Origin: Bryobacterales bacterium
GTDB taxonomy: Bacteria; Acidobacteriota; Terriglobia; Bryobacterales; UBA6623
NCBI GenBank assembly: GCA_965248105.1
Contig: CBDFIK010000006.1
Location: 2,145,926 to 2,209,925 of the forward strand
Reading direction: 5' to 3'
Length of the DNA: 64,000 bases
The position numbers and the translations under genes were made by a program. Positions within the stretch are counted from its first letter, which is position 1. Every line of letters begins with the position of its first letter. This document shows positions 6,433 through 38,702 of this stretch, one piece after another. The notes beneath the pieces are model-generated. The model was not told the origin of the DNA. It searched no databases and worked only from the letters and a program-made list of their open reading frames with translations.

Positions 6433-6453
6433 GCCGACCTTTAGGAATGTGTC

Positions 6454-8036: not shown

Positions 8037-8206
8037 TTGACCAACTCCTGTGCGGTTTGGAAGAAATCAAAGGAGATTATACAGCAGGTCACCCGTGAAG
8101 CAGCTGCCCAACCCGGGAATAGCGTCCGACCAGGAATCTCGATCCTGTCGAGGCCAGACGTACAGCAGATTTTCAGCAAGTCGTTAAAAGCTGCAGCTCC
8201 AGACGC

Positions 8207-10135
8207 TCACTCCTCCTCCTGCGCTCCCGCCAACCGGTTGATCACCGACAGATCTTCTAAGGTCGTGATGTCGCCCGACACTTTGTCGGTGGTGACAATT
8301 TCGCGGAGGAGGCGGCGCATGATTTTGCCGCTGCGGGTCTTGGGGAGGGCTTCGGTGAAGCGGATTTGCTGCGGGCGGGCGAACTTGCCGATTTCCTGCG
8401 CCACCCAAGCGCGCAGAGTCTCGTTTAAATCATCGTTGGCGTCGATGCCTTTTTTGAGGGTCACGAACGCGACCACGGCTTGACCGGTCAACTCGTCCGG
8501 TTTGCCGATCACAGCTGCCTCGGCAACGGTTTCGTGCTTCACGAGCGCCGATTCGAGCTCCGCCGTGCTAAGACGGTGCCCGCTTACGTTCATCACATCG
8601 TCAACTCGACCGAGGACCCAGATGTAGCCGTCCTTGTCACGCCGAGCGGCGTCGCCGGTGAAATAAATCCCCGGAATCTGCGACCAATACTGTTGCTTGT
8701 AACGCTCCGGGTCGCCCCACAATGTCCGAATCATCGCCGGCCACGGCTGGCGGACCACCAAGTAGCCCTCGCCTGTCTCGACCGAGTTGCCTTCCATATC
8801 GACGACATCGGCCACAATGCCGGGCAGCGGGAAGGTCGCCGAGCCGGGTTTGGTCGGCGTGGCTCCCGGCAGCGGGGAGATCATGATCGAGCCGGTTTCG
8901 GTTTGCCACCAAGTGTCCACGATCGGGCAGCGCTCGTGACCGATCGTCTTGTGATACCACTCCCAGGCCGAGGGGTTGATCGGCTCCCCGACGGTTCCCA
9001 GCAGCCGCAGGCTCGATAGATCGTGGCGCTCAGGCCACTGTTCCCCTTGCCGGACAAAGGCCCGGATAGCAGTCGGCGAAGTATAAAAGATATTGACCTT
9101 GTACTTTTCAATGATGCGCCAAAAGCGGTCCGGCTCGGGGAAGTCGGGGGCTCCTTCGTAAATAACCGTCGTGGCGCCGGCCATCAAAGGACCGTAGACG
9201 ATATAGCTATGTCCGGTGACCCAGCCGATGTCGGCGGCGCACCAATAAGTGTCTTCATCCTTGATGTCGAAGACCCAACGCATGGTCGCACTGACCTGCG
9301 CCTGGTAACCCCCCGTCGTATGGACGATGCCCTTGGGCTTGCCCGTGGTGCCCGAGGTGTAGAGAACATAGAGCGGGTGTTCCGCGTCGAGCACCGCGGC
9401 CGGGCATTCCTCGCCCGCGTTTCGCTCCAGCTCGCCCCAATAGTGATCCCGCCCCGCCTTCATCTCGACGTCGCTGTTTGTTCGCTGATAGACGATGCAG
9501 TGTTTGACATTCGGACAGTCTTGCAACGCCTCGTCCGCCGTGTCTTTGAGCCGAACCTCTTTGCCGCGCCGCCAACCACCGTCGGCCGTGATGACGGCTC
9601 TCGCGTCGAGGTCAAGGATGCGTGTCTTCAGCGCCTCCGCCGAGAACCCCCCAAAAACGACGCTGTGGGTAATGCCCAGCCGTGCGCAGGCCAGCATGGC
9701 AATCGGCAGCTCCGGAACCATTGGCATATAGATGATGGAGCGGTCGCCTGTCTTGAGGCCCAACTGCTTCAACACGTTGGCAAACCGCGCTACGCGGCGG
9801 TACAGCTCTTGATAGGTAAGAACGCGCTCGTCGCCGGGCTCGCCTTCCCAAATAATCGCCGCTTTGTTCTTCCGCCAAGTCAGCAAGTGACGGTCAAGGC
9901 AGTTGTAGCTCATGTTCGTCTTGCCGCCGACGAACCACTTGGCAAAAGGCGCATCCCACTCCAACACCCGGGACCACTTTTCGAACCAGTGGAGTTCCTT
10001 CTCCGCCAACTGCCCCCAAAAACCTTCCGGGTCCTCGGTAGCCTGACGATAGATCTCGCGATACTGGTCCATGCTAGAAACAGACGCTTGTTTCGAAAAC
10101 TCCGCGGGCGGTTGATAGAGGGTGTCGGATGCCAT
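8207..10135 (-). CDS. acs: Acetyl-CoA synthetase (AMP-forming)
   Basis: 642 aa. Acs-like along its full length: [35 protein letters not shown], and [10 protein letters not shown] near the C-terminus. Confidence 0.95.
8221..8277 (-). repeat. Proximal copy of the acs 3'-end direct repeat (inside the intact acs)
   Basis: See 4610-4667. About 85-90% identity over ~57 nt, with a 24-nt perfect core ccgacagatcttctaaggtcgtga. Confidence 0.7.
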
Positions 10136-10733: not shown

Positions 10734-11600
10734 ATGGAACGAGCAACCGCCCTCGAAAGCGCGTTGTACAATCGAGAGTTGATGCGAAAGCCCGTGGCCG
10801 GCCTACTTGCTCTGTATCTAGCACTCGCCTTGCCCGTCTGGGCGGCTGAACGCGAAAACGTCCGACTGCTTTACATCGGCCCCGCTGAAAGTAGCGCGGT
10901 AAAAGGCGCGCGGCAGGGGTTGAAGGAGGCGAACGTACTCGGAAGATTCACGGGCCACGGTTATCAGTTGACGCAGGTAGGCGAGACGGAAAAGCTAGGA
11001 AGCTGGATTACAAACCTCCAACCGGCAGCCGTGCTGGCAGTACTGGATTCCGGCAAACTTGCGACGCTGAGCGACCGCCTGGCCGACGCCGGCGTCGCTA
11101 TATTCAACCTAACCGCCGGGGACGACATCCTTCGCCGGCAATGCCGGCCCAACTTGCTGCACACCGCGCCCAGCGACCGCATGCGCGCCGATGCCATCAA
11201 CCAGTGGCGCAAGAGGTCGGACTCGGCCGATGTCGAAGCCCTTGCCTGGCACCGGGACTTCAAAAAATTCGCCGGTCGGGAGTTGAACAACCGCTTCCGT
11301 CGAACCCAGGGCGCCGCGATGGACGACGGCGCCTGGGCGGGCTGGGCGGCAGTCAAGATGATTGCCGAGGCGGTGGCACGGACCCGCAGCACGACCCCGA
11401 GCGACATTTTGGTCTACTTGAAAGAAGAAATGGAATTCGACGGACAGAAGGGCGTCCCCCACACGTTTCGCAACACCGGCCAGTTGCGCCAGCCCTTGCT
11501 GATCGTCGAAAACGGCGAGCTTGCCGGTGAAGCGCCGGTTCGCGGCGTCGTGGAGACCGACGATCTCGACAGCCTAGGACTGGCGAGTTGCAAGGAATAG
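10734..11600 (+). CDS. Periplasmic binding protein of the PQQ-dependent alcohol dehydrogenase system type (TIGR03863-like)
   Basis: Signal peptide MRKPVAGLLALYLALALPVWA (alternative start 10782). Family-typical segments: LRRQCRPNLLHTAPSDRMRADAINQW, DDGAWAGWAAVKMIAEAV, GQLRQPLLIV, and the C-terminal DSLGLASC. The upstream part of the 10536 ORF lies in hairpin repeats and is not coding. Confidence 0.7.
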   Translation: MERATALESALYNRELMRKPVAGLLALYLALALPVWAAERENVRLLYIGPAESSAVKGARQGLKEANVLGRFTGHGYQLTQVGETEKLGSWITNLQPAAVLAVLDSGKLATLSDRLADAGVAIFNLTAGDDILRRQCRPNLLHTAPSDRMRADAINQWRKRSDSADVEALAWHRDFKKFAGRELNNRFRRTQGAAMDDGAWAGWAAVKMIAEAVARTRSTTPSDILVYLKEEMEFDGQKGVPHTFRNTGQLRQPLLIVENGELAGEAPVRGVVETDDLDSLGLASCKE

Positions 11601-11657
11601 CGACAGTTGCAGAAGGATCGAATCGTTAGCCCCGAAATCACCTACGGCAAAACAGCT

Positions 11658-12647
11658 ATGACGTTTTCGCTAGCACAAGCCTCCTTCATCAAACAGGCAG
11701 TTTTGGTGGCCGCGGCCTGGGCCGTCTGCGCCGCTTGCTCAAGCGCTGACCCCACCCACCGTCTGTTCGTCACCAACGAGGGCGATAACACGCTGTCGGT
11801 CATTGACACCCGAACCGGCAAGCTGGAAGCTACCATCGAAGTCGGGAATCGTCCACGCGGGATCGGCCTCTCGCCCGACCGAAAGTATGTCTACGTCGCG
11901 AACGGGGATGACAACGCTCTCGCCGTTGTCGATGTCCGCTCTCTCGAGGTTGTCAAGACAATCCCCGCGGGATCGGACCCGGAAGCGTTCGCTGTCCACC
12001 CGAACGGGCACATTTATCTTTCCAACGAGGATGACGGCAAGGCAAGTGTGGTCGATCCACGCTCGGGTGAGATCCTCGCCGAAATTCCCGTCGGCATCGA
12101 GCCGGAAGGCGTCGGCATTTCTCCCGACGGCAAGCTCGTCATGGTCACCAGCGAATCGACCAACATGGTGCACGTGATCTCCGTGTCCACAAACGAAGTC
12201 GTCGACAACATACTGGTGGGCGCCAGGCCGCGGGAAGTGGCCTTCACTCCGGACAGCCGTTGGGCCTACATTAGCTGCGAAGTGGCCGGCCAGGTATTGA
12301 AGCTGGATGTCGAGACGCGGCAAATTGTCAACACGGTAAAGCTGCGCAGACATATCAAGAAAGCCAAGCCGAAAGGCTTGCAGCTCAGCCATGACGCGAA
12401 GACTCTTTACGTCTCGACAGGCCGAGGGTCTGCGATTGCCGTATTGGATGCGGATTCACTGGCAGTCAAAACGACCATCCCCGTAGGAAAACGTGTCTGG
12501 GGGTTGGCGCTCTCACGGGACGGATCCCGCCTGTATTCCGCGAACGGCCTCGACAACACCGTCTCGGTCGTCGATACCGAAAAGAACGTGGAGATCAACA
12601 CGATTGCGGTCGGTGAGCGGCCCTGGGGCGTGGCACTCGACGATTAG
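11658..12647 (+). CDS. YVTN-family beta-propeller, PQQ-dependent catabolism-associated type (TIGR03866-like)
   Basis: Lipoprotein-like signal (..AVCAACSS). Repeats LFVTNEGDNTLSVIDTRTGK, RPRGIGLSPDRKYVYVANGDDN, IEPEGVGISPDGK, TSESTNMVHVI. Confidence 0.85.
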   Translation: MTFSLAQASFIKQAVLVAAAWAVCAACSSADPTHRLFVTNEGDNTLSVIDTRTGKLEATIEVGNRPRGIGLSPDRKYVYVANGDDNALAVVDVRSLEVVKTIPAGSDPEAFAVHPNGHIYLSNEDDGKASVVDPRSGEILAEIPVGIEPEGVGISPDGKLVMVTSESTNMVHVISVSTNEVVDNILVGARPREVAFTPDSRWAYISCEVAGQVLKLDVETRQIVNTVKLRRHIKKAKPKGLQLSHDAKTLYVSTGRGSAIAVLDADSLAVKTTIPVGKRVWGLALSRDGSRLYSANGLDNTVSVVDTEKNVEINTIAVGERPWGVALDD

Positions 12648-12677
12648 CCCCAATGGGAATTACTTAACGGTAAGTCA

Positions 12678-12843
12678 GCCCCCGAAGGGGGCGCGGGATA
12701 ATAGCCCAGGGTGGAGCCATTTTTGGCGCAACCCTGGGGGGAAAGCCAAACACGAATCAGCCCTGGAGGGGCGTAGGAAACAGTGATCGCGGGCTAGCCG
12801 CTTCCGGGCAGAGACACTACACCGGAACCCTCTGTTATCCGCG
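12678..12843. repeat. MITE-like structured intergenic element
   Basis: Hairpins gccccc-gaa-gggggc (12778-12792 region: 12678-12692 by line count) and cccagggt...accctggg (12705-12738). Near-inverted ends cgcgggataa (12692) and ttatccgcg (12835). Confidence 0.35.
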
Positions 12844-12852
12844 ACGCACCCC

Positions 12853-13830
12853 ATGCCGCGAAGACTCCTCGCCCGCATTTCCCTGCTCTGCTGTGCGCTC
12901 TCTGCCGTGGCATGGGGCAGTGAGGTATCCCGCCAAGAGGCTATCGGCTGGCGACTGTTTTTCGACCCCATCCTCTCTCGCCCCCGAAATACTTCGTGCG
13001 GAACGTGCCACAAGCCGGAGCACGGCTTCGAGCAGGGCGTCGCCTTTGGCAAAGGGGCGCACGGCGACGTACTACCGATCAGCACCCCAACAGTGGTCAA
13101 CCTGCAGGAAGCCGACTACTTCTTCTGGGACGGTCGCGCGGAATCGCTCGAAGAGCAGGCCCGGGGCCCGATCACGAACCCGATCGAGATGGATCTGACG
13201 CTGGAGGAAGCGGTAGCCCGGGTGAAGTCCCAATCGCGTTACCGGAAAGCGTTCGCTGCGATCGGTGTAAACGAGATTGCGATCGACGACATCGTCCGTG
13301 CCATTGCGGCCTTCGAGCGAAAACTTATTACCGGCGAAACGGCGTTTGACCGCTGGCTACAAGGGGATCGGAGCGCTTTGAGCGCCTCCCAAGCTCGCGG
13401 ACGGATGATCTTTTTCACCCGTGGTGAGTGCGCCATCTGCCACATGGGGAACAACTTCACCGACAACGACTTCCACAATGTCGGAACCGGAAGCGATACT
13501 GATCCAGGACGCTACAACGTAACGAAGGACGAGGAAGACAAGGGCGCCTTTAAGGTCCCCTCGCTGCGCAACTGGAAAGGACGCGAACCGTTCATGCACG
13601 ACGGCCGGTTCAAGACGTTAGGTGAAGTGATCGAACACTACAGCGATCCGCCACCAGCGAAAGTCGGTGAGTCCGAGCTCGACCCGCTCGATCTCACCCA
13701 AGCTGAAAAAGGCGAGCTACTCGCTTTCCTCGAAGCCCTCAACGGAGACTGGCCGGACTTGTCGGTCTTCGAGATCGCTTGGAAGGAGCTTGTCGGCGAC
13801 GAATCCCCACAGCGTCGCGGGGGCAGGTAG
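12853..13830 (+). CDS. Di-haem cytochrome c peroxidase / MauG family
   Basis: Signal peptide. Two CxxCH sites (CGTCHKPEHGF and CAICHMGNNFTDNDFHN), plus FKVPSLRN and PFMHDGRF. Confidence 0.9.
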   Translation: MPRRLLARISLLCCALSAVAWGSEVSRQEAIGWRLFFDPILSRPRNTSCGTCHKPEHGFEQGVAFGKGAHGDVLPISTPTVVNLQEADYFFWDGRAESLEEQARGPITNPIEMDLTLEEAVARVKSQSRYRKAFAAIGVNEIAIDDIVRAIAAFERKLITGETAFDRWLQGDRSALSASQARGRMIFFTRGECAICHMGNNFTDNDFHNVGTGSDTDPGRYNVTKDEEDKGAFKVPSLRNWKGREPFMHDGRFKTLGEVIEHYSDPPPAKVGESELDPLDLTQAEKGELLAFLEALNGDWPDLSVFEIAWKELVGDESPQRRGGR

Positions 13831-13877
13831 AAAAGCCGCGGATCTCAAAGGCGAGATCGCGCTACGAGCTTGCTCCG

Positions 13878-16433
13878 TCATTGATCGTCAGCCACAGCCA
13901 GAAAAGCTCCGGGCTGAGTGGAAAAGCCACCGACGCTGGCGCTGATGCTGTGGTCTCCAGCTGCGAGAGGCGGGATCGGCACGTTGAACTGATAAAGACC
14001 CGCACCCACCAAACCGGCAAACGATGGAATAACTGGGGTGTCGCCAATCTGGAAAACGACCTCGTTTGCCAAGCGGTCGCGTTGCAGGTCGAACAAGAGG
14101 ATTTCACCTTCAGCGATGCCGCCCGCCGTTTGCCCGAACCCGGTTGCGAAAACCTGAATCGTATCTCCAGGAGCCGCGGGCCGGGTCGGAAGCGCACCGC
14201 CAAACAGATCTCCTGGTCCCACGAAGAATCCATCGAGGTGGACCGCCGCCACGTACTTCCGGTCTTGTGGATTGAACATGAAGAAACCCGGCGCGAACTC
14301 ATCCGCGGTCATCGTGAAGGAGTCTAATGGGCCCTGCGGCGTCGCCACCTGCACGTCGACCGACTCTGCAACTCCCATTACCGGCGAAAGTACATTGAAC
14401 TGAGTAGGACTGATATAGGAGACATAACCGGGGCGTCCGTTGAAGGAAACGCTGAAACCGTCCAAGTCTTCCGGCAGCCGATTGTCCACGAAATCGGAGC
14501 CTCCCCAGATACGCGTTGCCGCATCGACCGGGTCAGTCAAGAAAACGCTGACCCAGGTGTTGGGGGCGAACTGCGGGAAAAAGCTCCCCCCATGCAACAA
14601 GACGGCCGGTGACATAGGGCCCGCAAACTTGACGATTGCCCCGTCGCTCTCACCGCCGCTGTAGTTTTCCCCTATGACTCCGCTGGTAGTCTTGAATTCT
14701 GGGCTGCTGGTCCCGCCAAAGAGCAAGACTCCACCGTCGGAGGTAGTCATAGGACGACTCAGCACCTCTTGCCCGGATCCTCCGATGTAGGTCGAAAACT
14801 CCACGAAATTCGTACTCAAGTTGAACGTTAAGAAATAGGTATCTACTACTCCTGCGAAGCCGGGCTGCAACGCGCCTGGCGAAGATGGCAGGTCGCTTGA
14901 CGATGTAATGCCGCCAATGTGAATCCGATTTTCGGCAGCAACATTAGCAAAGAAGGCGTCGACGCCCGCTCCGCCGATGTAGGTGCCATATTCAAGCGCC
15001 TGAAGATTATTATCCAGGACCACGAGAAATCCATCGTTCTGACCACCGCCAAATGTAGGCTGGAACGCATTAATCGACGCGGGAAAATCTGAAGACGACG
15101 TGATACCCCCGACAACGACCTTGCCATCTCGCGAAATCGCGATGGACAACGCACCGTCAAACATGTCGCCACCAAGCAGGGTTGATGCAATCAGCGAATA
15201 GTCCTCGGCAGCCAGTTTGATGATGAAAGCGCTGGTGCCGCCCCGAAGCAACTGCATGAAGCTGCCGGGCGTGGTCAAAAAATCAGCGGAACTAGTGGCG
15301 CCGGCCAAATAGACGTCACCTTTGTCGTCTGTAGTCAACCACGGACCCAGTTCGAATGCGAGGCCTTCGACTTCAGGATCTACAAACCGAACTGCGTGCA
15401 ACTCGGAACCTGAGCCCCCCAGGAACGTCGAGTATTCAATGCCTGGTTGGTCCAGTCGAAGTACGCTGAAGAAGCCATCGTACTCGAGAGGATTGGTCGC
15501 GCTCCGGCCGCCTTGATGCTGGGTTGACATGGCGCCCGGCGTAATTGGGAAGTCCGTAGAGGCTGTGTAGCCGATTATCAACAGTCGATTTTGGCGATCC
15601 GCGACGATGGCAGTACCGTTGTCGTCCGACGACCCGCCAAGGTAGCTGCTGAAGAGCAGTGTGTCGCCGCTTTCGGACAGTTGGGATACAAACGCGTCGG
15701 GGAGCGCATTGTTGTTGGCCTGAATCGCGTTTAACGACGTCGGAAAGTCCGTCGACCCAGTGAATCCACAGATCGAGATCGATCCGTCCGCCATGATCAC
15801 GATTCCGTTCGGTGCGTCGAAGTTCTGTCCTCCCAGATAGGTCGAGAATACGATTTCCGATGCGTCGGGCCGAAGCATCGTGACGAAGATATCCAAGAAA
15901 CCCGCGTTGTTGTTCTGAGCGGCATTGGCCGAGCGGGGGAAGTCGAGGGAATTCGTGGCTCCGGTGATTACGATATTGCCGTTCTCAGCTAGGGCAAGGC
16001 CGTTAATGAAATCGCCTAATGACCCACCGATAAAGGTCGAGAAAACTAAATCCGGATCGATAATCAAGGGATCTGGGCGAATCGGACCCTCGATTTCAAA
16101 TCCGACGCTGCCATCGTCACGGATTGCGTAGGTTGCTTCCGCTCGAATGAGTCCTTGAGCGGTTTCCCAGAACGCCTTCGGTGCGGTCCAGGTTGCCAGT
16201 CCGACAGCGGTAGAGATCTCGATTTCTCCCTGAGCGTTCAGGCGAATACCGTCGTGACCGCTGAACTGGAGCGCTATCTGATGTACTGCGCCGCCGTGAT
16301 CGAGAATGCGATACCCTAAGCGACCGTTGTTGTTTTGAAATATGAAGTCGACTCCCGGGTAGACGTCCGGGTACAGCACGGAACCATAAAGGGGCACCCC
16401 TTTCATCCATTTCTCGGAGTCGTCGCCTATAAA
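13878..16433 (-). pseudogene. SBBP-repeat beta-propeller protein with Solibacter-type C-terminal domain: 3' 851 codons of a gene split by insertion
   Basis: The 842-aa ORF has many repeats of the form T.S.DFP....A.Q. Its C-terminus is ..FAGLVGAGLYQFNVPIPPLAAGDHSISASVGG.. It has no signal peptide. The frame stays open upstream to 16433 (FIGDDSEKW-MKGVPLYG) and continues fragment 21639-22069. Confidence 0.85.
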
Positions 16434-16535
16434 TGGAGATGTTCACTGAGGCGACTCAGCTAGGCGCGCAAGAGAAGGCGGCTCTGGCTTGCGTTTATGA
16501 TTACGAATGACGCTGACGGTGAAAAGCTGAAGGCC

Positions 16536-16596
16536 AAAAAAGGCCCCTGTAGAAGCTGACCTTAACGCTAGGGTCAGTTTCCGCAGGGGCTTTTTT
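16536..16596. terminator. Bidirectional rho-independent terminator-like hairpin
   Basis: aaaaaa-ggcccctg...(inner ctgacc/ggtcag stem)...caggggc-tttttt. Confidence 0.5.
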
Positions 16597-16802
16597 AGCT
16601 TACGTTGACGGGTGAGAAGGAAAGCGAGGGAGGAAGTGCCACGAAGGTTAGCTAAACCTTGGAGGCCCCCGCTCTCCTTCTCTGGTAGGAGCACTATCAG
16701 ATGCTCCTAGTGGCCAGATAGGGCCAAGCAAAACCTATCCGACCTAAAAGAGAAAAGGGGGCGAATCAACCGAAAAATTCGCTTTTCTTTTCTCTTAAGC
16801 TG

Positions 16803-17525
16803 GTGTTGCGATTTGCTCCTCGAGTGTTCGCCACGCCGAGTGACCCATTCGGTCTCCGAGACGCAGCCGCTGTCATCCATCCAAAGGTGCCCTGGATTGC
16901 CTACCACTTCTTTTGGGAGGATGACATCGACTTTCCCGACGACAACGACCCTTGCGATCACGAACTGATGTGGGTCCGCCTGAATGAAAGGCGAGAGCGG
17001 GTCGTCGATTACTTCACCTATTTTCACGGACGGATTTTAAGGGCCCTACCGGCCGCGGTCGAAGAGGCCAATCGGTCTGGCGGGCAGCCGGCTGTTAGCG
17101 TGCAGTGGGGCAAGCACGGGACGATGCCCGCCGGTTGGCGCAACCTAACAATTGTGGCGGATAATGGCGACACCGAGAGCGACTACTACCCGCTCGACAG
17201 CGAAATCTCGTTGGAGAAGTACAACCGTGGAACGTTCGAGAAACTCTCCAGGGTTGGGCCGCGAGCGGCGTCCTCGCCGCTGGCGAGCAAGTGGCCGAAG
17301 AGGTTTAGCGGAACCTGGGAGGACTTTCTCGATTTTTCTAAGCCCGTGGACGTCCGAGGCATCCTTCGCCGGAAGAAGATGGTCCTGGTCTCATCGTGGA
17401 ACAACAGTGTTCTCGACCGCTACTTGTTGAGGTACAACTTTCGGCCCAAAACGGAATGGCCGCCACAGGTGTGCGAAGACCTCAATAAGGACGGGAGCAT
17501 TCCCACTTCATTCAGGGGAAAATGA
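16803..17525 (+). CDS. Hypothetical protein (passenger gene of the transposition unit)
   Basis: 240-aa ORF with protein-like composition (..HFFWEDDIDFPDDNDPCDHELMWVRL..). Non-ATG start. I do not recognise a family. Confidence 0.45.
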   Translation: MLRFAPRVFATPSDPFGLRDAAAVIHPKVPWIAYHFFWEDDIDFPDDNDPCDHELMWVRLNERRERVVDYFTYFHGRILRALPAAVEEANRSGGQPAVSVQWGKHGTMPAGWRNLTIVADNGDTESDYYPLDSEISLEKYNRGTFEKLSRVGPRAASSPLASKWPKRFSGTWEDFLDFSKPVDVRGILRRKKMVLVSSWNNSVLDRYLLRYNFRPKTEWPPQVCEDLNKDGSIPTSFRGK

Positions 17526-17676
17526 TACGGAAACTATCCCAAGCCTAGTTGCTCGTCTTGTTATCGCAAGTCCAATACGAGTTCTCTCAGCTGGCGGAGG
17601 CCTTCCGGGACCTTACAGCCCACGATCATCGCTCTAACTCTCCATTTGGCGCCTCTTGTTCTATCCACGAACATGG

Positions 17677-18285
17677 TTACCCTTTGCGACAAGCTTCTCG
17701 AATCGTCTCCTCTAGCAGGCGTGTTAATGCCTCGTCGTCGTATGTCATGCTCTTCGCGATCTCTCTCCCCCGCGCTGAGAGACGCCGATAGCCCCAAATA
17801 GAACGACGCTTCGTCTCCTCCCAGCCTTCGCGTTCGTAGTAGAACGGCATATTGACCTCGAAATACGAAATGCTATCTGCATCCTTCAGCAAATCAGAGC
17901 GGTAATCGCCTCCAACCTCATGCCGTACTACCAGCCGGCAAGCCTCGTCCGCGGTGGGCTTGGCCACGCCGCACTCGTCGAAGATCGCTCGCAGGATGTT
18001 CGCCCCGTTACGCGCATGGGCAGCCTTGAATGCCTCATAGTCCTCATAGTCGCAGCGACGCACTTTCCGTTTCTCAACGGCCCGGTCGATATCGTGAGCG
18101 AGAGCGGCGATCTGCAATGCCTGTCCGGCCTTGGCGTTGAGCCTTAACACCCACTCAAGCGTGTTTTCAGCATGCAGAGGGTCTTCCGGGACCTTGGAAG
18201 CCGCGATCGTCGCTCTGATTCTTTGTTTTGTGCTTTCTATGCTATCCATGGTCCCGGCAGATGATGACGCGGCGTATGGTTTCAA
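17677..18285 (-). CDS. DUF4202-like helical protein with an HD-like His/Asp pattern
   Basis: 202-aa ORF. ATG at 18249 (MDSIES..) forms ATGGATAG with the IPCT/DIPPS stop codon, so this is the likely real start. Motifs: LHAENT, AALAHDIDRA, AAHARNGANIL, VRHEVGG, LLKDADSISYFE. A 93%-identical paralogue lies at 36419-37027. Confidence 0.7.
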   Translation of the reverse strand: MKPYAASSSAGTMDSIESTKQRIRATIAASKVPEDPLHAENTLEWVLRLNAKAGQALQIAALAHDIDRAVEKRKVRRCDYEDYEAFKAAHARNGANILRAIFDECGVAKPTADEACRLVVRHEVGGDYRSDLLKDADSISYFEVNMPFYYEREGWEETKRRSIWGYRRLSARGREIAKSMTYDDEALTRLLEETIREACRKG

Positions 18286-19564
18286 TGTTCATCACAGCCG
18301 CAATAACGACCAGCGTTAGAGCAGCTTGGTTGAGCAGGGCGCCAAGGATTATTAGAAAGACACGCACATCGCGGCCCAGACGGAATCCCTTGCCGTGCCG
18401 GATACGGGCGCGCATGAGCCCGTCGTATTTGTCCGCCGTATAGCTCACCATAAAGGAACCGATAATCGCCAGAAATCCAGTCAGTAGGATGAGGCTATCC
18501 GTCTTGTCGGCGTAGGCGTGCCAGGTGAGGCCGAAAAGCAGCAAGGCGTCGGCGTAACGGTCCAGTACCGCATCGAGCCACCCTCCGTAGGCACTGGTTT
18601 GGAACTTCAGCCGCGCCACTTCGCCATCGCAGCCATCGACGACCGAGGCGAACTGTGCCAGAAAACCGCCCAGCAAAAGGGCGAGGTAGCCGCCCAGTGC
18701 GAACAGGCCAGCAGCCAGCACGGAACAAAGGAACGAAAACAAGGATATTTGATTAGGGGTGATGCCGTAGTTGACAAGCCGGCGGGAAATCCTCACGGAT
18801 AGGGGTCGGTTCAAGTAACGCGACACGGGACCGTCACTGGGCTTGTCCGCTAAATCGGCCGAGAGCGCGTTCTCTGCGCGCCTGACGGCCGCGGGATCAT
18901 CTACATCGATCCAAAAATGGCCGTTCACATCGACCGCCTTGGCCCGGTCCTCGGTGGCCAGAACCCGCACCGCTCCGCACAGGCTGGTATCGCCGGACTC
19001 CTCCGCGCAACGCTCCAGCGCGTCGAAAACGGCGGGAGTAGAGACGAAAATCCCCGTGTCAAACCCATTGAAGTCCGTTAAGCCCTTGCCGATGTTGTTG
19101 ATCTTCCCCCCTTCCGTCTTGACTCGGGTGACATCCCCCATGTCGACGAGGGAATTACGAATATCCCTATCCACGGCAAGGCTGATTTCGCCTTCGGCTA
19201 AAGGGAGCTCCAGCATCTCACGGGCGATCGATGGTTCAAAGAGATGGTCCGCCATCAGGAGCAAAAAAGGTTCACGGAGGTGCTGCCGCGCCTTGAGTAC
19301 GGACAAGCCGTTTGCTTTTTCCCAATCCCCGTTAACGATGGGGGTGATACGAATCCCCGCGCGGTCGCTCAGACCCTTCAGGAACGTGCGAACACGCTCC
19401 CCGTGGTATCCGGTGACCACATAAAAGTCATCTGCCCCGGCCTCCCGTGCGGAGCGAATGACGCGTTCGATCAGAGGGACCCCCAAAATGGGGATGAGGG
19501 GTTTGCTGTCACCCCTGAGCCGTAGACGACTACCTTTCCCCGCGCCGATGATTAGACACTTCAT
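18242..19564 (-). CDS. Bifunctional CTP:inositol-1-phosphate cytidylyltransferase / CDP-inositol:inositol-1-phosphate transferase (IPCT/DIPPS)
   Basis: N-terminal nucleotidyltransferase motif (IIGAGKGSRL...KPL). C-terminal CDP-alcohol phosphatidyltransferase motif DGCDGEVARLKFQTSAYGGWLDAVLDRYAD. Its collinear resemblance to the Archaeoglobus IPCT-DIPPS (SDGPVSRYLNRPLSVRIS, FMVSYTADKY) is from memory. Confidence 0.88.
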   Translation of the reverse strand: MKCLIIGAGKGSRLRLRGDSKPLIPILGVPLIERVIRSAREAGADDFYVVTGYHGERVRTFLKGLSDRAGIRITPIVNGDWEKANGLSVLKARQHLREPFLLLMADHLFEPSIAREMLELPLAEGEISLAVDRDIRNSLVDMGDVTRVKTEGGKINNIGKGLTDFNGFDTGIFVSTPAVFDALERCAEESGDTSLCGAVRVLATEDRAKAVDVNGHFWIDVDDPAAVRRAENALSADLADKPSDGPVSRYLNRPLSVRISRRLVNYGITPNQISLFSFLCSVLAAGLFALGGYLALLLGGFLAQFASVVDGCDGEVARLKFQTSAYGGWLDAVLDRYADALLLFGLTWHAYADKTDSLILLTGFLAIIGSFMVSYTADKYDGLMRARIRHGKGFRLGRDVRVFLIILGALLNQAALTLVVIAAVMNIETIRRVIICRDHG

Positions 19565-19594
19565 CCCTAGAGTCTCAGCCGGGACCTCTCCCCG

Positions 19595-19716
19595 AACTGA
19601 GGCAAAACGCTTAATCTTAAATGGGGCAGTTGAACTTGCCTAGGAAGGTCACATCAACTGAGGCTAAACCCTTAATCTTAGATGGGGCAGTTGAGCTTGC
19701 CTAGGAAGGTCACATC
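19595..19716. repeat. Two tandem copies of a 61-bp unit upstream of IPCT/DIPPS
   Basis: Unit 1 (19595-19655): aactgaggcaaaacgcttaatcttaaatggggcagttgaacttgcctaggaaggtcacatc. The unit repeats at 19656-19716 with 4 mismatches. Confidence 0.9.
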
Positions 19717-19950
19717 ACAGGACATTGTCGCATATTTCGAGCCACCGGACATCGCTGGGAAGCGGCACTGGTGGACGCACGGATCAGGATGTCGGCCCCA
19801 ATCCAGCGTTTGCGGCGGTTCGCTTCCACGACGAGCTCTTTTGTCAAACCCTAACCCGCATTTCTCACGACAAAGCAGTAGGGGCGGGCCGAGAGGCTCT
19901 CGCGGCGTTGGGTTGCGTGATCGAATGGGACGGAGTGTGCATCTCACGAA

Positions 19951-19977
19951 GGGGCGGACACGGCGGTCCGCCCCTAC
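19951..19977. repeat. REP-like palindrome + CTAC
   Basis: ggggcggac-acggcg-gtccgcccc-tac. Confidence 0.7.
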
Positions 19978-20200
19978 CCAGGATTTCCGATTTGGCTCCT
20001 CTGACGGCACGAGTCTACACCCTCACCCGGCGAAGCGCAACCATTTCTCCACCCGAAAGAGGCGGCGGCTGAGGCGGGACCGATCGAGCCCCCTTCTTGC
20101 CCCTCATGGGGGCTGATCCGTCGCTGCGAAGTCAATTTCGCAGACACCCCTCCGAGCTTCCGTCCTCAGTACACAGATTTCGCATTCGCCAAGTGCGGTG

Positions 20201-21532
20201 CTACCCGCCCGGCACAGGCAGCGCCCAGATCCTCCGCAGCATGTCGCCAAACAGCCGCCGGTTCAGATGTCCCTCCGCGAACAAGAGCCAGTAATACCGC
20301 GCGTGTTTAATTAGCCGTCCGCCCGTCTTCACTAACCGCTGCTGTAAGCTCGTCAGCGACCAGCTCTTGATCCTTGGTGGCAGTCCCAGCCGCCGCCACA
20401 GGTTGCCCAGGTTATAGGCCAGCACACTCAACTGCAAGCGCACTTCGTTCGCCCGGAAGCGATGGCACGACAGCCTTGTCCAATGCGTCGCCTGCTTGCC
20501 TTCTTTAATCCACTGCTCGGCCGTCCCGCGCTTGTTGTAGAAGCGCACCACGGAGCGGCTTGGCAAGCTCATGTTCGTCACGATAAAACCGACGCGCGCG
20601 AACAGCTCGCCCTGGTGGTGCTCGACCTTGGCGACAACTCGTCTCGGCTTCTTCCAGCTCTCCGCCTGATAGCGAAAGCTCTTGTAGCGCACTAGCGGCT
20701 TGCGGCCGGGCCTCCCCGGCGGACGAAACAGGATGTCTTCGATCTCTAACTCCAAGCTCCTGTTGGCCGGAATGCGGATGGCGTACTGCACGCCGCGTTC
20801 CTGCGAAGCCTCATAAATCTCTGGCTTGGCAAAGGCTGCATCCCCCCGGAAGGCGACCAGCTTGCCCGCAGCCTGTTGGCGCTCGATCTCCGGCAACAAT
20901 AGCTCATCCCAGTCCTCGGCGCTGTGCACGTTGCCGGGACGCAGCTTCGCCGCCAAACAATCACCGTGCTGGTTGAACAACAACAGCGGGTGGTAGCAGA
21001 CCGACTCGAAGTGTCCGTTGTAGGCACTGCCTTCCTGTTGGCCATGGACCGGACTCTCGGTGGAGTCCATGTCCAGAACGACCCGCTCGGAGTCGTCGAA
21101 CGCCTCCGCTTGCCCGACCAGCTCTCGGTTCAGCGCCAGCAGCCCCAGCAGGTTCTCTTCGCTCGCCAGCATCTCCGTCTCGAAGCCGTGCAGCGTCGAG
21201 GTCAAGGCCGCACCGCGATCCCAGATCTTCTGCGAGCCGATCAAGCGAAACGTCGGGTCAGCCGACACTCGGACGGCGTCGTTGACGTCCTCGTAGCCCG
21301 CCAAGCGGCTGTAGATCGACTGCCGCAACAGATCAGCGAGCGTGAACTGCTTGTTTGTGCCTTGCCGGGAGTCGCTGAGATGCTCGTCAATCAGTTCTCC
21401 GAGACCGAGCCGTTCGTCCAGTTCGCGAACCAAAATCAGACCACCGTCGGAAGTGACGTGCGATCCCTGGAAATCGACTTTCAACGAGCCGTTGAAACTT
21501 AGCTGGAATGGCTTGGTTTGTTTTTCACCCAT
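20201..21532 (-). CDS. tnpA: IS1380-family DDE transposase
   Basis: 443 aa. Motifs: SDGGLILVRELDERLGLGELI, LDMDSTESPVHGQQEGSAYNGHFESVCYHPLL, FRGDAAFA, YNKRGTAEQWIKEGK. Confidence 0.9.
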   Translation of the reverse strand: MGEKQTKPFQLSFNGSLKVDFQGSHVTSDGGLILVRELDERLGLGELIDEHLSDSRQGTNKQFTLADLLRQSIYSRLAGYEDVNDAVRVSADPTFRLIGSQKIWDRGAALTSTLHGFETEMLASEENLLGLLALNRELVGQAEAFDDSERVVLDMDSTESPVHGQQEGSAYNGHFESVCYHPLLLFNQHGDCLAAKLRPGNVHSAEDWDELLLPEIERQQAAGKLVAFRGDAAFAKPEIYEASQERGVQYAIRIPANRSLELEIEDILFRPPGRPGRKPLVRYKSFRYQAESWKKPRRVVAKVEHHQGELFARVGFIVTNMSLPSRSVVRFYNKRGTAEQWIKEGKQATHWTRLSCHRFRANEVRLQLSVLAYNLGNLWRRLGLPPRIKSWSLTSLQQRLVKTGGRLIKHARYYWLLFAEGHLNRRLFGDMLRRIWALPVPGG

Positions 21533-21638
21533 TGGGTGTTGGCCTCCCTGGCGTCCTCATCGGGCTCTAGCCCCTATGAATAAAGACGCTCAAGGCCGCC
21601 GGAAGGTCGAGAGGTCTGAATCAAATTGGAAATGCGGG

Positions 21639-22069
21639 ATAAAGTAATGGGCTTTGCCAGGCAACTTGGCGTTTCCAACTGGGACGCTTGCCTTGTCACT
21701 CCCGTGAAAGGACAACTCCAGCGTTGCCGTATTGCGGGATGTAGGCCTATTGAGTTCTCTGGGCGCGCGAGTGGTGCGGTCGGAGAGCCGAACCGAAACG
21801 GCATCGGAATCCAGGACCACATCATAGTTTGGGAAGCGCGCGCGATATCGTGACGACGCGGCATCCTGATCAATTGCCTCGAACGCGACCGGCAATTGGC
21901 GGATATCGATACGCCCAGCATCCGCGGTTGAGTAAGTCGGAGACAAAGGGCCAATCGTTGCGGCCATGCAAGACATTCCGGTCAGCAGCAGAGCAAGTCT
22001 CGCGGACCGACCCGCCAAATCGGCGAGGTGCCGAAGCGAGGAAAAGATAAGAGGGCTGCAGGTCTTCAT
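21639..22069 (-). pseudogene. 5' 143 codons of the split SBBP-repeat gene (signal peptide and N-terminal region)
   Basis: From ATG 22069 the sequence reads MKTCSPLIFSS...LALLLTGMSCMAATIG...IDIRQLPVAFEAIDQ...LPGKAHYF and then enters IS sequence at 21638. The 232-aa track ORF 21590..22288 is a chimera. Confidence 0.8.
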
Positions 22070-22288
22070 GAATATGAATGAAGGAAGCATTGGTGAAGTA
22101 CTCGAACGTAAGTGTAAGTAACTAACTCTTCGCACCGCAAGTCCGCTTCGTGCACCTGCGCCTGTCGGAAACTCCACCGCGTGGTCGGCTGGCGAATCTT
22201 CTTCCTCAATGAGAGTGGAGTTTTCCACATTTCCACAGCGCCGACGACGATTCCCCGCAGGTCCACAACAAATCCTGGTCAGCATCAA

Positions 22289-22600
22289 CTATAGGATCGC
22301 GGCGGGCCGACAGACGCTGGATTTCCTGCACGCGGCACGCGCCCGCCAGATCCGCGGTCGTTTGACCCAAAGCCGCGCCTTGGCATCGAACGGCAATCGC
22401 ACATGGTCGATCTTGATCGCTCCGGCGGTCTCGGCCAACCACCGTGCGCTCGACCATTTCCACGCAAGGGATCTCCCACCAACCCTTTCCGGACCGGGGT
22501 CATGTGCATGTAGTCGAGCGCCTCGTCGAACTCGCCTCGTGTCCGCAGCGCGTGATCGTAGAATCGACTCTGCCGAAAAACCCGCTCTCTCTTTAGCAAT
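22289..22600 (-). pseudogene. REP-associated tyrosine transposase (RAYT / IS200-like Y1) C-terminal remnant, frameshifted
   Basis: FRQSRFYDHALRTRGEFDEALDYMHMTPVRKGLVGDP is in one frame and continues as LAWKWSSARW in another. The N-terminal HUH region is absent, because the cyclase gene starts 75 nt away. Confidence 0.6.
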
Positions 22601-22674
22601 GGTTTCCCGGCCGACGACGATCGGCGTGAGCAATTACCGGCCCTATTGCGTTTCTATCTGCGATAATCGGACCC

Positions 22675-23457
22675 ATGGTTGACGAACTGCTAGCCAATCT
22701 GGAGAAGACCACGGCCTATGATCTCGGCCAGCCTTACCGGCCAGGAATACCGCACCATCCCATTCATCCACCGTTTGTCTATTGCATGAGCAAAATGCAC
22801 GGGGACACCATGCTCGGCGACGCGAGCTCCGCGGCGGATTGCTTCACCCTTGGCGGCCACACGGGAACCCATATTGATGCACTCTGTCATTTCTCAAAGG
22901 GTTTAAAACTTCATGGAGGCGTCGATGTCGCTCAGTCCTACACGGGGGGCGTGGAGCATTGGGGCGTCGACACCATCCAGCCCATCCTGCGGCGCGGGGT
23001 TCTGCTCGATGTCGCTCGTCATGAGAAAACAGACATCCTCCCCGAAGATTTTGCGATCGGAGCGGACACCTTGCAGGTGGCCGCGCGCGAACAAGCCGTC
23101 GAGGTGCGAAAGGGCGACGTCGTGTTGGTCCGCACCGGATGGGGACGCTACTGGGACAACCCGAAGCAGTACATCAACGGAGTGCGGTCGCCCGGCGTGA
23201 ACCTGGAAGCCGCCGAATGGCTCAGCGCCCTCGGTGTGTTCGCGGGCGGTTCAGACACGATTGCCTTCGAATTGGTTCCCTCGACGAGCATGCCGGTTCA
23301 TGTTCACTTGCTTGTCGAGAGCGGCATTCACATCATCGAGGCGTTGAATTTGGAAGAGTTGTCTCAAAACGAACAGTGGCAGTTCGTCTTTGTGGCCGTG
23401 CCGATGAAGATCGTCGGGGGAACGGGCTCGCCGATTCGACCGATTGCGTTGGTGTAG
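22675..23457 (+). CDS. Cyclase-family protein (kynurenine formamidase-like)
   Basis: 260 aa. GGHTGTHIDALCHF motif. The overall pattern matches Pfam Cyclase as I remember it. Confidence 0.8.
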   Translation: MVDELLANLEKTTAYDLGQPYRPGIPHHPIHPPFVYCMSKMHGDTMLGDASSAADCFTLGGHTGTHIDALCHFSKGLKLHGGVDVAQSYTGGVEHWGVDTIQPILRRGVLLDVARHEKTDILPEDFAIGADTLQVAAREQAVEVRKGDVVLVRTGWGRYWDNPKQYINGVRSPGVNLEAAEWLSALGVFAGGSDTIAFELVPSTSMPVHVHLLVESGIHIIEALNLEELSQNEQWQFVFVAVPMKIVGGTGSPIRPIALV

Positions 23458-24161
23458 GCTTCACTCGCTAATCGTCAAGAGGCTGACTTGCGAACCGCAG
23501 CGCTCATCCGAGGCGTGTTCGCGGGGTCCCTTGCTCGCACACCCTCACGACGAGCGGATCGGGAGCCGCGAATGCAGGTGACCCGCATGTCTTTTTATCT
23601 AAGTTATTCATTCAAAGCATCTTAATACCGTTAGTGGCACCGTCGCCTTGGATGGGCAGGGTACAATATAACTGGGTACCCGAAGTATTCGGGGCCGACT
23701 CGAGGGCGGGTGGTCCGGACCCACGAACCGACGGGCCCAGAAAATTACCAAACAAAGCCAATTTCTCACAACCCACAGGGAATCAATGGGTTACGGCTGG
23801 TTTCTAGTACGGCGGGGCGGCCGGCTCGGCAAAACCCGACGGATCGCTCCAGCGGACGCGAAGAGACCTTCGCCTGAGGCAGTCGGCCCCTAGGAACAGC
23901 AAGGCAACAACGGAGCATCAGAGCAAGAGGAGTTACCCGAGTAACAAAATGACCAAACAAAGCCAATTCAAAATAACTCTCATATATTCAGTAACTTACA
24001 CGACTCTTGGGAGGGACAGTGGTCTGCGCTAAATCATCCGCCGATGCGAAACGCCCGTCGGTGTCCAGAACCTCAACCGCACCCTTTCGAGCGGGGCTCT
24101 GTTTGGTGTGGGCTGGCCTCGGCCCGGTGGCGTCGGCGCTTTGGGCCGCAGGCGGCGACTC

Positions 24162-28255: not shown

Positions 28256-28292
28256 GTTCCGGACATCCTCATGAAACGAACTACTAAGCTAA

Positions 28293-36101: not shown

Positions 36102-36418
36102 GCCGCCTGCTCGGAAAAATCCGCGCCAGGCATCAAGAAGTCCTAGTGTGACCCGCTGGCCCACCGACTTCTCTTGGAGAAAGCGCAGGTATTCGATCCT
36201 TTGATCCCCGCGGCTGAATCTTCCGCCTATGAGCCGTGTAGGGGTACTTGTCGTCAGCAGGCTGCGGTCGCCGTTCTCGGTCATCAGCTCGGCGTTCTGT
36301 AGTGGAATCACCGACCACCATGGCGGCTTCGGCTAGCGGACCGACTTTGCGGACTTGGCTGTTTCGGCTTTGCTCGGCAAGCGAAGATCCCCGTTGAAGT
36401 CGATCCGCGCGGACATGG

Positions 36419-37027
36419 TTACCCTTTGCGACAAGCTTCTCGAATCGTCTCCTCTAACAGGCGTGTTAATGCCTCGTCGTCGTAGGTGATGCTCTTCGCG
36501 ATCTCTCTCCCCCGCGCTGAGAGACGCCGATAGCCCCAGAGAGAACGACGCTTCGTCTCGTCCCAGCCTTCGCGTTCGTAGTAGAACGGCATATTGACCT
36601 CGAAGTACGAAATGCTATCTGCATCCTTCAGCAGATCAGAGCGGTAATCGCCTCCAACCTCATGACGTACTACCAGCCGGCAAGCCTCGTCCGCGGTGGG
36701 TTTGGCCACGCCGCACTCGTCGAGGATCGCTCGCAGGATGTTCGCCCCGTTACGCGCATGGGCAGCCTTGAATGCTTCATAGTCGTCATAGTCGCGGCGA
36801 CGCACTTTCCGTCTCTCAACGGCCCGGTCGACATCGTGAGCGAGAGCGGCGATCTGCAATTCCTGTCCGGCCTTGGCATCGAGCCTTAACACCCACAGAA
36901 GCGTGTTTTCGGCATGGAGAGGGTCCTCCGGGACCTTGGAAGCCGCGATCGTCGCTCTGATTCTTTGTTCTGCGCTTTCTATGCTATCCATGGTCCCGGC
37001 AGATGATGACGCGACGTATCGTTTCAA
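36419..37027 (-). CDS. DUF4202/HD-like protein, copy 2
   Basis: 202 aa. 187 of 202 residues are identical to 17677-18285. The ORF is intact. Confidence 0.7.
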   Translation of the reverse strand: MKRYVASSSAGTMDSIESAEQRIRATIAASKVPEDPLHAENTLLWVLRLDAKAGQELQIAALAHDVDRAVERRKVRRRDYDDYEAFKAAHARNGANILRAILDECGVAKPTADEACRLVVRHEVGGDYRSDLLKDADSISYFEVNMPFYYEREGWDETKRRSLWGYRRLSARGREIAKSITYDDEALTRLLEETIREACRKG

Positions 37028-38300
37028 CGTTCATCACAGCGGCAATAACGACTAGCGTTAGAGCAGCTTGGTTGAGCAGGGCGCCAAGGATTATTAGAAA
37101 GACACGCACATCGCGGCCCAGACGGAATCCCTTGCCGTGCCGGATACGGGCGTGCATGAGGCGGTCGTATTTGTCCGCCGTATAGCTCACCATAAAGGAA
37201 CCGATAATCGCCAGAAATCCGGTCAGTAGGATGAGGCTATCCGTCTTGTCGGCGTAGGCGTGCCAGGTGAGGCCGAAAAGCAGCAAGGCGTCGGCGTAAC
37301 GGTCCAATACCGCATCGAGCCACCCTCCGTAGGGGCTGGTTTGGAACTTGAGCCGCGCTACTTCGCCATCGCAGCCATCGACGACCGAGGCGAACTGTGC
37401 CAGAAAACCACCCAGCAAAAGGGCGGGATAACCGCCCAGCGCGAACAGGCCAGCCGCCAGCACGGAACAAAGGAACGAGAACAGGGATATTTGATTAGGG
37501 GTGATGCCGTAGTTGACAAGCCAGCGGGAAATCTTCACGGATAGGGGTCGGTTCAAGTGCCGCGACACAGGACCGTCATTGGGCTTGTCCCCTAAATCGG
37601 CCAAGAGCACGTTCTCCGCCCGCCTGACAGCCGCGGGATCATCTACATCGATCCAAAAATGGCCGTTCACATCGACCGCCTTGGCCCGGCCCTCGCCGGC
37701 GAGAACCCGCACCGCTCCAGATAGGCTGGTATCGCCGGACTCCTCCGCGCAACGCTCCAGGGCGTCGAAAATGGCGGGAGTGCATCGGAAAATACCGGTG
37801 TCAAAGCCATTGAAATCTGTTAAGCCCTTGCCGATGTTGTTGATCTTCCCGCCTTCGGTCTTTACTCGGGTGACATCCCCCATGTCGATGAGGCAATTGC
37901 CAATATCTCTATCCACTCCAAGGGTGATTTCGCCATCGGCGAAAGGAAGCTCCATCAACTCACGGGCAATCGATGGTTCAAAGAGATGGTCCGCCATCAG
38001 GAGCAAAAAAGGTTCACGCAGGTGCTGCCGCGCCCTGAGTACGGACAAGCCGTTTGCTTTTTCCCAATCCCCGTTAACGATGGCGGTGATACGAATCCCC
38101 GTGCGGTCGCTCAGACCCTTCAGGAACGTGCAGAACACGCTCCCCGTGGTATCCGGTGACCACATAAAAGTCATCTGCTCCGGCCTCCCGTGCGGAGCGA
38201 ATGACGCGTTCGATCAGAGGGACCCCCAAAATGGGGATGAGGGGTTTGCTGTCACCCCTGAGCCGTAGACGACTACCTTTTCCAGCGCCGATGATTAGAC
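36984..38300 (-). pseudogene. IPCT/DIPPS copy 2: start codon lost and +1 frameshift in the cytidylyltransferase domain
   Basis: Homology to copy 1 ends at ..gattagacac (38300), 4-5 nt short of the ATG. gtgcAgaacacgc (38129 region) against gtgcgaacacgc in copy 1 shifts the frame. The longest ORF (36984..38174) lacks the GAGKGSRL motif. Confidence 0.8.
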
Positions 38301-38702
38301 ACCATGAGGTGTGTTGTATCGGTTCGCTACCCGGCTGTCAAGTTGGAGGCACTGCGGGTCTGACGTAGAACAAGTAGGACATCCTGCCTGTTCAAGCCGT
38401 TCGTAGGCGGGTTAGAGCGGGAAGGCTCGTCCCTCCCAATGGACGCGAAGGGGACTTAACGAGATGTGAGTGCGCCTGCGATTCGTATGCACCTGCAAGT
38501 AAAGTACTTATTCACGACGAAGCTCGGATCCCTAGTGGCAAGGCAGAGCGTTGTATCGCAAGCGCCCAGCGGGCAGAGCTGGTCGGGAGGAAAGGGTTTA
38601 GGCAGATTCCCCAGTCAACAAATGATGGGGCGCTGGACACTCGACCCAAAGACTCCAACAGCATAAAAGGACTACTGACTGATATGTGCTTTCTACCGCG
38701 GG

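Follow-up and report, generated by a model that had tools for sequence, protein, structure and literature searches.

Insertion sequences (ISs) of the IS1380 family are ~1.65-2 kb long, have short imperfect terminal inverted repeats that begin with CC, and duplicate 4-5 bp of their target. ISEcp1, which moves blaCTX-M and blaCMY-2 in Enterobacterales, forms transposition units that run from the left inverted repeat (IRL) to a surrogate of the right inverted repeat (IRR) and that are layered by successive overshoots. For two other members of the family, ISPme1 and IS1247a of Paracoccus, two papers describe 'transposable modules', which consist of one IS plus a variable length of 3'-adjacent DNA (PMC9330008, PMC3281130). 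According to the same papers, the endpoints of ISPme1 modules resemble the inverted repeat, the capture of 3'-adjacent DNA was shown experimentally, and a strong outward promoter has been reported for ISPme1 (PMC9330008, PMC3281130). On modules, both papers cite Bartosik et al. (2008) as their source. Here we describe a 5205-bp block from an uncultured member of the Bryobacterales (Acidobacteriota), located at positions 16434-21638 of a 64,000-nucleotide stretch of contig CBDFIK010000006.1 (hereafter the window). The block carries a cassette of inositol-solute genes and is very probably a transposable module made by a single ISPme1-like copy of an IS1380-family element.

The insert lies between two copies of ATAAA and splits a gene for a DUF7948/SBBP protein. 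The decisive comparison was with contig ctg116062 of ENA sample ERZ26694896, which holds the loci L088 and L089 and shares 99.95% identity with the window; an orthologous locus, L004, shares ~90% of its nucleotides. The features concerned are as follows.

16429..16433: target-site duplication, left copy (ATAAA, 5 bp), present once at the empty site of L089 and L004
21639..21643: target-site duplication, right copy (ATAAA)
13878..16433, minus strand: disrupted DUF7948/SBBP gene, 3' part
21639..22090, minus strand: disrupted DUF7948/SBBP gene, 5' part (signal peptide and start of DUF7948)

Both copies of ATAAA stand where an earlier note on this DNA had placed them. Matched to the DUF7948 profile, the two halves of the gene are complementary, with 21644-22069 covering profile positions 9-86 and 13878-16406 covering positions 97-213. 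The same note had proposed that the halves join in frame upon deletion of the insert. Indeed, excising 16434-21638 together with one ATAAA rebuilds an in-frame protein of 993 aa that reads ...GKAHYFIGDDSEKWMKGVPLYG..., and the gene call in L089 is a single uninterrupted DUF7948/SBBP protein of 1000 aa, beginning MLPSFIFMKTCSPL. Window 10782-16433 corresponds to L089 1-5652 and window 21639-23763 to L089 5648-7772. The overlap of these two aligned stretches amounts to exactly ATAAA (5 bp), and the sequence there, cgtcgcctATAAAgtaatggg, is the one predicted for an empty site. In L004, the alignments to window 13869-16433 and to 21639-22215 likewise share 5 bp. The intact homologue P0123 reads ...NAKLPGKAHYFIGDDPKKW... 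across the junction, and orthologues read GKAHYFIGDD, so that HYFIGDD spans the junction in both P0123 and L089, as had been anticipated. None of the relatives has the passenger genes at this site without the IS, whereas the near-identical strain has the empty site.

The 5205-bp block is a precise single insertion with a 5-bp duplication. It is polymorphic among near-identical genomes and is therefore recent. The insertion knocked out the gene of the SBBP surface protein at about codon 150.

The IS within this block has the following layout.

19978..21638, minus strand: IS proper (1661 bp, IS1380 family, ISPme1-like), with ends common to six full-length copies
19978-19998: IRR
21618-21638: IRL
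20201-21532, minus strand: tnpA

The presence of an IS1380-type tnpA at one end of the insert, as described earlier, is upheld by profile matches of its 443-aa product to PF13701 (DDE_Tnp_1_4, E 2.6e-117) and to the NCBIfam model NF033539 'IS1380 family transposase' (363 bits, cut-off 180). IRL (CCCGCATTTCCAATTTGATTC) and IRR (CCAGGATTTCCGATTTGGCTC) match at 16 of their 21 positions. Together with the profile match, the length of 1661 bp, the imperfect inverted repeats and the 5-bp duplications (CTCCA, CCTAG, ATAAA) are traits of the IS1380 family. Within the family, the name given to the element has to change. The earlier note had called it ISEcp1-like; yet, in a tblastn search of plasmids, the amino-acid identity between its transposase and an annotated 'ISPme1 family transposase' is 48.6%, with 97% of the protein aligned, compared to only 27.8% over 61% of the protein for ISEcp1. 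Close relatives of the transposase number in the thousands, and an exact-protein look-up of the window tnpA product returned no record.

The ends of the IS were defined from six other full-length copies with 90-97% identity, three in L001 and one each in L002, L007 and L008; five complete copies could be aligned at both ends. The copies in L001 and L002 came from contigs that encode 97% and 95% (aa) relatives of the transposase. All six begin at the equivalent of 21638, the tip that had been expected of other copies, and all six end ...GAGCCAAATCGGAAATCCTGG, which corresponds to window 19978. Two of the L001 copies carry perfect 5-bp duplications, CTCCA and CCTAG, which fixes both tips of the IS; the other four of the six copies lack a target duplication. 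The IS proper in the window is flanked by unlike 5-mers, TTTAT and GTAGG, and therefore did not insert here alone. Within the 5.2 kb there is a single full IS (19978-21638), and the two ATAAA copies flank the IS plus its passenger rather than the IS alone. One end of the block is the tip of IRL (21638), while the genuine IRR (19978) lies in its interior.

The passenger (16434-19977) abuts IRR and is a mosaic of a 3184-bp piece 1 and a 360-bp piece 2. With IRR placed at 19978, its length is 3544 bp instead of the 3.4 kb given earlier. Its main parts are listed below.

16794..19977, minus strand: passenger piece 1, captured chromosomal segment (3184 bp), matching the IS-free loci L005 and L006
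18242..19564, minus strand: bifunctional IPCT/DIPPS-type gene, 440 aa (PF12804 and PF01066), exact protein in L005 and L006
17677..18249, minus strand: DUF4202/HD-like gene, 190 aa (PF13875 E 5.9e-21; HD E 6e-6), exact protein in L005 and L006
16794..17525, plus strand: 5'-truncated gene, codons 66-308 of a 308-aa protein, convergent to the cassette, with the full gene at L005 12043-12969 and in L006
16434..16793, minus strand: passenger piece 2 (360 bp), outermost layer, unmatched in the fetched loci

Window 16794-19977 corresponds to L005 12774-9588 with 99.78% identity over 3187 bp, and it is 99.9% identical to L006. This homology starts exactly at the tip of IRR (19977/19978), at the first base outside it. 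In both loci the order of genes is IPCT/DIPPS, DUF4202, the convergent 308-aa gene, ACP, FabF and, further on, sucCD and ndk. Both encode the exact IPCT/DIPPS and DUF4202 proteins of the window, and in both the IS is absent upstream of the cassette at the equivalent of the IRR junction. Piece 1 is at least as similar to L005 and L006 as the window is to its nearest chromosomal relatives. Hence, capture within the same species, and probably within the same genome, is the simplest reading. Among GTDB representatives, eight Bryobacterales loci were compared; both cassette copies of the window align to one IPCT/DIPPS-DUF4202 locus in these genomes, and five of the eight (L007-L011) also have the adjacent 308-aa gene. 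As candidate donors the GTDB representatives were rejected, because the best of them reaches only 94% aa identity.

In L006, the transposase gene of an unrelated ISL3-family insertion (5203-6435) is located between the 308-aa gene and ACP, and ~277 bp at ~3632-3909, following DUF4202, are absent from both L005 and the window. This points to further IS traffic at this locus.

The motif cccgcatttc at 19855, which the earlier note had taken for the inner inverted repeat of the IS, is present at that position, but it is not an IS end. None of the six other copies reaches it, all of them ending at the equivalent of 19978, and the motif belongs to a repeated intergenic element that also occurs free of the IS.

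19855..19977: part of the repeated intergenic element holding cccgcatttc, IS-free in L005 and L006

Further copies of the repeated element in L005 and L003 extend across the point of IS insertion. At the donor locus, the IS would have inserted into such an element. A sequence elsewhere in the window, 28289-28307 (CTAACCCACATTTCTCACG), repeats the motif of 19851-19869 including its CTAA flank and is not an IS end either. Beside it, a 47-nt sequence (28209-28255) recurs in inverted orientation 18.5 kb away, at 46737-46783, with 96% identity. Probably, this motif and these repeats are the ends of small repeated or mobile elements.

At its other end, the homology of piece 1 stops at 16794, inside the 308-aa gene, of which the window lacks the first 65 codons. 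The gene continues beyond this breakpoint in L005, L006 and the five GTDB relatives L007-L011. What had been described as a hypothetical gene in the passenger is therefore a real open reading frame (ORF; 16803-17525) but not a complete gene. The fragment has no Pfam or NCBIfam match, and an exact-protein look-up of this ORF returned no record. The breakpoint adjoins a sequence that resembles the right end of the IS.

16794..16821, minus strand: IRR-like terminal sequence of piece 1 (GAGGAGC-AAATCGCAACACCAG, then CTTAAG)

The genuine IRR, for comparison, is GAGGAGCCAAATCGGAAATCCTGG; modules that used this putative surrogate end would terminate at GAGGAGCAAATCGCAACACCAG(CTT). In a scan of both strands of L005 (21 kb) for gapped similarity to IRR, the site scored 12 (mean 5.1, sd 1.2) and tied for rank 2-3 among 42,578 positions. 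Its orientation is that required of an IRR, and the homology breakpoint lies 3-6 bp beyond it. We consider it the probable surrogate end of a first capture step.

On the plus strand, piece 2 resembles the last 24 codons of an ORF (...EMFTEATQLGAQEKAALACVYDYE and the stop), followed by a terminator-like hairpin and ~200 bp of non-coding DNA; terminator-like sites are found at 16543-16556 and 16761-16782. Its outer boundary, at the duplicated ATAAA, is the following.

16434..16457, minus strand: putative surrogate right end of the final transposition, GAGTCGCCTCAGTGAACATCTCCA in tnpA orientation

Compared without gaps, in the register that the junction fixes, this putative end agrees with the genuine IRR at 12 of 24 bases (P = 0.007 by the binomial distribution and 0.0085 empirically). 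In the JGI metagenomes, a back-translated, degenerate pattern for the C-terminal 18 codons gave 0 matches, and an X-padded protein search with the 24-aa peptide gave no candidates.

From these elements a history can be proposed. An IS copy would have inserted 413 bp upstream of IPCT/DIPPS at a donor-type locus, with tnpA in the same direction as the cassette. Its transposase would then have paired IRL with the IRR-like sequence inside the 308-aa gene, bypassing the genuine IRR, and thereby have moved the IS plus 3184 bp to a second site. At that site, the transposase would have overshot again, this time by 360 bp and as far as a sequence less similar to IRR, which gave a unit of IS + 3184 + 360 bp. 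Finally, the unit would have entered the SBBP gene at ATAAA, an AT-rich target, and duplicated these 5 bp as this IS typically does. The claim of the earlier note that an IS1380-family element had captured DNA one-endedly, using its left end and a surrogate right end with a 5-bp duplication, is supported by the empty site, the donor match and the internal IRR. Its picture of the passenger needs a correction, as the cassette came within a two-piece mosaic that is traceable in part to a donor-type locus.

Several observations count against this history. The likeness of the outer end to IRR is only moderate, while the match at the inner end requires a 1-nt gap and leaves the breakpoint a few bases past the aligned IRR tip. 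The donor state, with the IS upstream of IPCT/DIPPS in an L005-type locus, was not found in an exact-junction scan of the JGI metagenomes, where the pattern GGAAATCCTGG joined to GTAGGGGCGGAC gave 0 matches (the donor junction of the model is also written as ...GGAAATCCTGG joined to GTAGGGGCGG). Moreover, no source for 16434-16793 came up when this piece was compared by BLASTN with the window and with every fetched locus. The sole basis for proposing two steps is therefore the inner junction with its IRR-like sequence.

This bears directly on the number of capture steps. If the 308-aa gene of the donor had already been truncated and joined to the 360 bp, one overshoot of 3544 bp to 16434 would have sufficed. 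Such a pre-existing junction is possible as long as no source for 16434-16793 is at hand, and the outer end is the only one tied to a demonstrated transposition event. However, the breakpoint adjoins one of the top three IRR-like sites in 21 kb, in the right orientation, a coincidence of ~1e-3, and the 308-aa gene runs on past this point in all eight relatives compared here, among them L005, L006 and L007-L011. We therefore regard a single step as conceivable but rather unlikely, and lean, with some reserve, towards two capture steps.

Explanations that dispense with a module altogether fare much worse. The IS alone might have entered the SBBP gene, with the 3.5 kb arriving later between IRR and the duplication by recombination or another element. 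Recombination between ISs does occur in these genomes, as the inversion in L003 described below illustrates, and four of the six other IS copies lack a duplication. Yet a second crossover needs homology between 16434-16460 and the SBBP gene, of which there is none, no duplication flanks the IS proper by itself, and the passenger ends exactly at the duplicated ATAAA so that the gene reconstitutes to the base. Two unrelated events are thus very improbable. A composite element, of which one of two IS copies has since been lost, or an element moved by a different recombinase, appears slightly less probable still. Nothing specific points to it, apart from a solo IS1380-type relic elsewhere in the window (31040-31132). 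At 16434 there is neither another IS nor the relic of one, nor is there an integrase or an att-like repeat; copies of this IS do generate 5-bp duplications, and one end of the block is exactly the tip of IRL. Least credible of all is a chimeric insert made by a metagenome assembler that joined reads through the repeated IS. The IS is indeed multi-copy, and the relatives come from low-coverage (7x-9x) long-read metagenome assemblies. A chimera, however, would not re-enter the same gene 3.5 kb further on, in frame and with a perfect 5-bp duplication, and the 16433/16434 junction lies outside repeated DNA.

Through the insertion of this module, the strain has acquired one more IPCT/DIPPS-DUF4202 cassette, and an intact one. 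The 440-aa protein combines an N-terminal inositol-1-phosphate cytidylyltransferase with a C-terminal CDP-alcohol phosphotransferase. Its best solved structure is the IPCT/DIPPS of Archaeoglobus fulgidus (4MND; E 1e-58, residues 1-419), and the CDP-alcohol phosphotransferase motif D-x2-D-G-x2-A-R-x8-G-x3-D-x3-D is intact in the translation (DGCDGEVARLKFQTSAYGGWLDAVLD). In the equivalog test of NF041135 it reached 297 bits, below the cut-off of 580. We therefore describe the protein as an IPCT/DIPPS homologue at the level of architecture, whose product would be DIPP or another inositol phosphodiester. The ATG of DUF4202 overlaps the stop codon of IPCT/DIPPS. Two further features belong to the captured cassette.

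17587..17667, minus strand: relic of a DUF4202 5' end, 72% identical, directly after the stop of the intact DUF4202 gene and within the 99.8% donor match
19595..19716: tandem pair of 61-bp repeats within the native DNA upstream of IPCT/DIPPS, also in L005 and L006

The relic spans the first ~27 codons of a DUF4202 gene, which hints that the cassette was replaced or duplicated at an earlier time. The tandem repeats are 93% alike, lie 30-150 bp upstream of the IPCT/DIPPS start and lack a consensus promoter; they may serve as a regulatory site. No Rfam match at E <= 1 was found in 16300-20100, including the non-coding parts and the 61-bp repeats. The captured cassette retains 413 bp of its native upstream DNA, and therefore need not depend on a promoter in the IS. 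A sigma-70 consensus scan found no outward promoter in 19978-20200, and the counts of promoters and terminators were no higher than in shuffled sequence. In L008, a 90%-identical IS copy (3340-5001) precedes IPCT/DIPPS by ~1 kb, but it is oriented the other way, so that its IRL faces the cassette. The region upstream of the cassette seems to attract this IS.

The genome also has a resident version of the cassette outside the mobile unit.

36394..38302, minus strand: resident paralogue, DUF4202 and IPCT/DIPPS (94.5% nucleotide identity)
34788-36101: inositol-3-phosphate synthase (MIPS) gene, convergent to the resident paralogue

The homology of the resident copy to every other Bryobacterales locus stops 5 nt inside the start, and its canonical ATG is therefore lost. 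In addition, a 1-nt insertion near 38133 distinguishes the window from L088, to which it is 99.95% identical; this could be a real frameshift or a sequencing error. That the resident copy is a dead pseudogene is not established, as it has no in-frame stops in L088 and its dN/dS relative to the mobile copy is 0.25-0.35.

A sister of the IS was found in the same SBBP gene of another strain. In L003, whose flanks are 98% identical to the window, a related IS (85% nucleotide identity) is inserted only 27 bp from the window site. Its IRL points toward the 5' part of the gene and its duplication is ATAAA, as in the window. The 22-kb L003 locus contains several such elements.

820-2929, 8157-9974 and 19892-22002 of L003: sister IS1380 elements

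Beyond its IRR, the copy in the SBBP gene has taken along 151 bp of DNA; two other copies have 444 bp of this same downstream sequence. Overshooting of the right end is thus a recurrent event in this IS clade. An IS-to-IS inversion in L003 has split the halves of the SBBP gene and joined DNA equivalent to window position 1623 to an IS. Two independent modules 27 bp apart in two strains may point either to a true hotspot or to selection for the loss of the SBBP protein. Tentatively, ISPme1-like IS1380 elements might routinely duplicate and shuffle genes within the genomes of soil Bryobacterales. Signs of this would be the repeated overshoot, with three different lengths for the sister IS in L003 and a layered unit in the window, the hits in the same AT-rich SBBP stretch and the supply of an intact cassette. 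If this were true, the module would have given an intact cassette to a genome whose MIPS-linked copy had lost its canonical start and, in the window, carries the 1-nt insertion.

Some further observations concern the surroundings of the block. Window 23764-23945 represents ~182-205 bp that are absent from the otherwise 99.95% identical L089; direct repeats of 23 bp (23741-23763 and 23946-23968) flank this stretch, which is an intergenic indel or a small insertion. The cyclase gene at 22675-23457 encodes a protein for which an exact-protein look-up returned no record. The solo relic at 31040-31132 is a 93-bp IRL-type end of a related IS1380 element, 80% identical to 21547-21638, and breaks off just before the expected start of tnpA. 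A 30-bp direct repeat (30232-30261 and 31011-31040, 93%) stops exactly at the tip of this relic and represents the 3' end of a metallo-beta-lactamase (MBL)-fold gene (29553-30278). The relic and the repeat may be the trace of an older IS-mediated rearrangement.

Compared to the known systems, the block resembles the modules of ISPme1 and IS1247a most closely. As in these modules, a single IS is located at one end, DNA on the IRR side is co-mobilised, and a short duplication surrounds the whole. The environmental high-GC host and the cargo without resistance genes are shared with ISPme1 as well, and the IR-like endpoints of ISPme1 modules may have their counterpart in the moderately IRR-like outer end of the block. 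In contrast to ISPme1, the host belongs to the Bryobacterales within the Acidobacteriota, and the IS is a distinct one, with a transposase only ~49% identical. Furthermore, ISPme1 modules were captured on trap plasmids, whereas our case is inferred from a natural polymorphism.

With the units of ISEcp1, the block shares the family, the probable pairing of IRL with a surrogate IRR, 5-bp duplications that are often AT-rich, and a passenger that lies downstream of tnpA in the same orientation; its proposed layering by two overshoots would also be of the ISEcp1 kind. It differs from them in its chromosomal inositol-solute cargo, which includes no resistance gene, and in the 413 bp of native DNA that remain upstream of the cassette. 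The cargo protein has the same two-domain architecture as the IPCT/DIPPS of A. fulgidus (4MND) and the Thermococcales (NF041135). In contrast to the genes of these archaea, however, the window gene is coupled to a DUF4202/HD-like gene and its product falls below the equivalog cut-off.

The earlier note had regarded such behaviour as known mainly from resistance genes in enterobacteria. This view is too narrow, since the behaviour is documented in environmental high-GC Paracoccus (PMC3281130, PMC9330008). The mechanism is thus already established; the novelty lies in the phylum, in the cargo and in how complete the natural record is. Our searches, which were not designed for finding one, turned up no prior report of such a module in Acidobacteriota. 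One data set contains the filled site, the empty site (99.95%), the IS-free source locus (99.8-99.9%), the genuine end in the interior and a probable intermediate end. It offers an unusually complete natural record of gene capture by a single IS outside the clinic, without a new mechanism, and shows how modules can be recognised in metagenome assemblies. It also provides a lead on IS-driven changes in the copy number of an inositol cassette and on the recurrent loss of one SBBP surface protein. Our results extend module formation by the IS1380 family to uncultured Acidobacteriota and to a stress-solute pathway.

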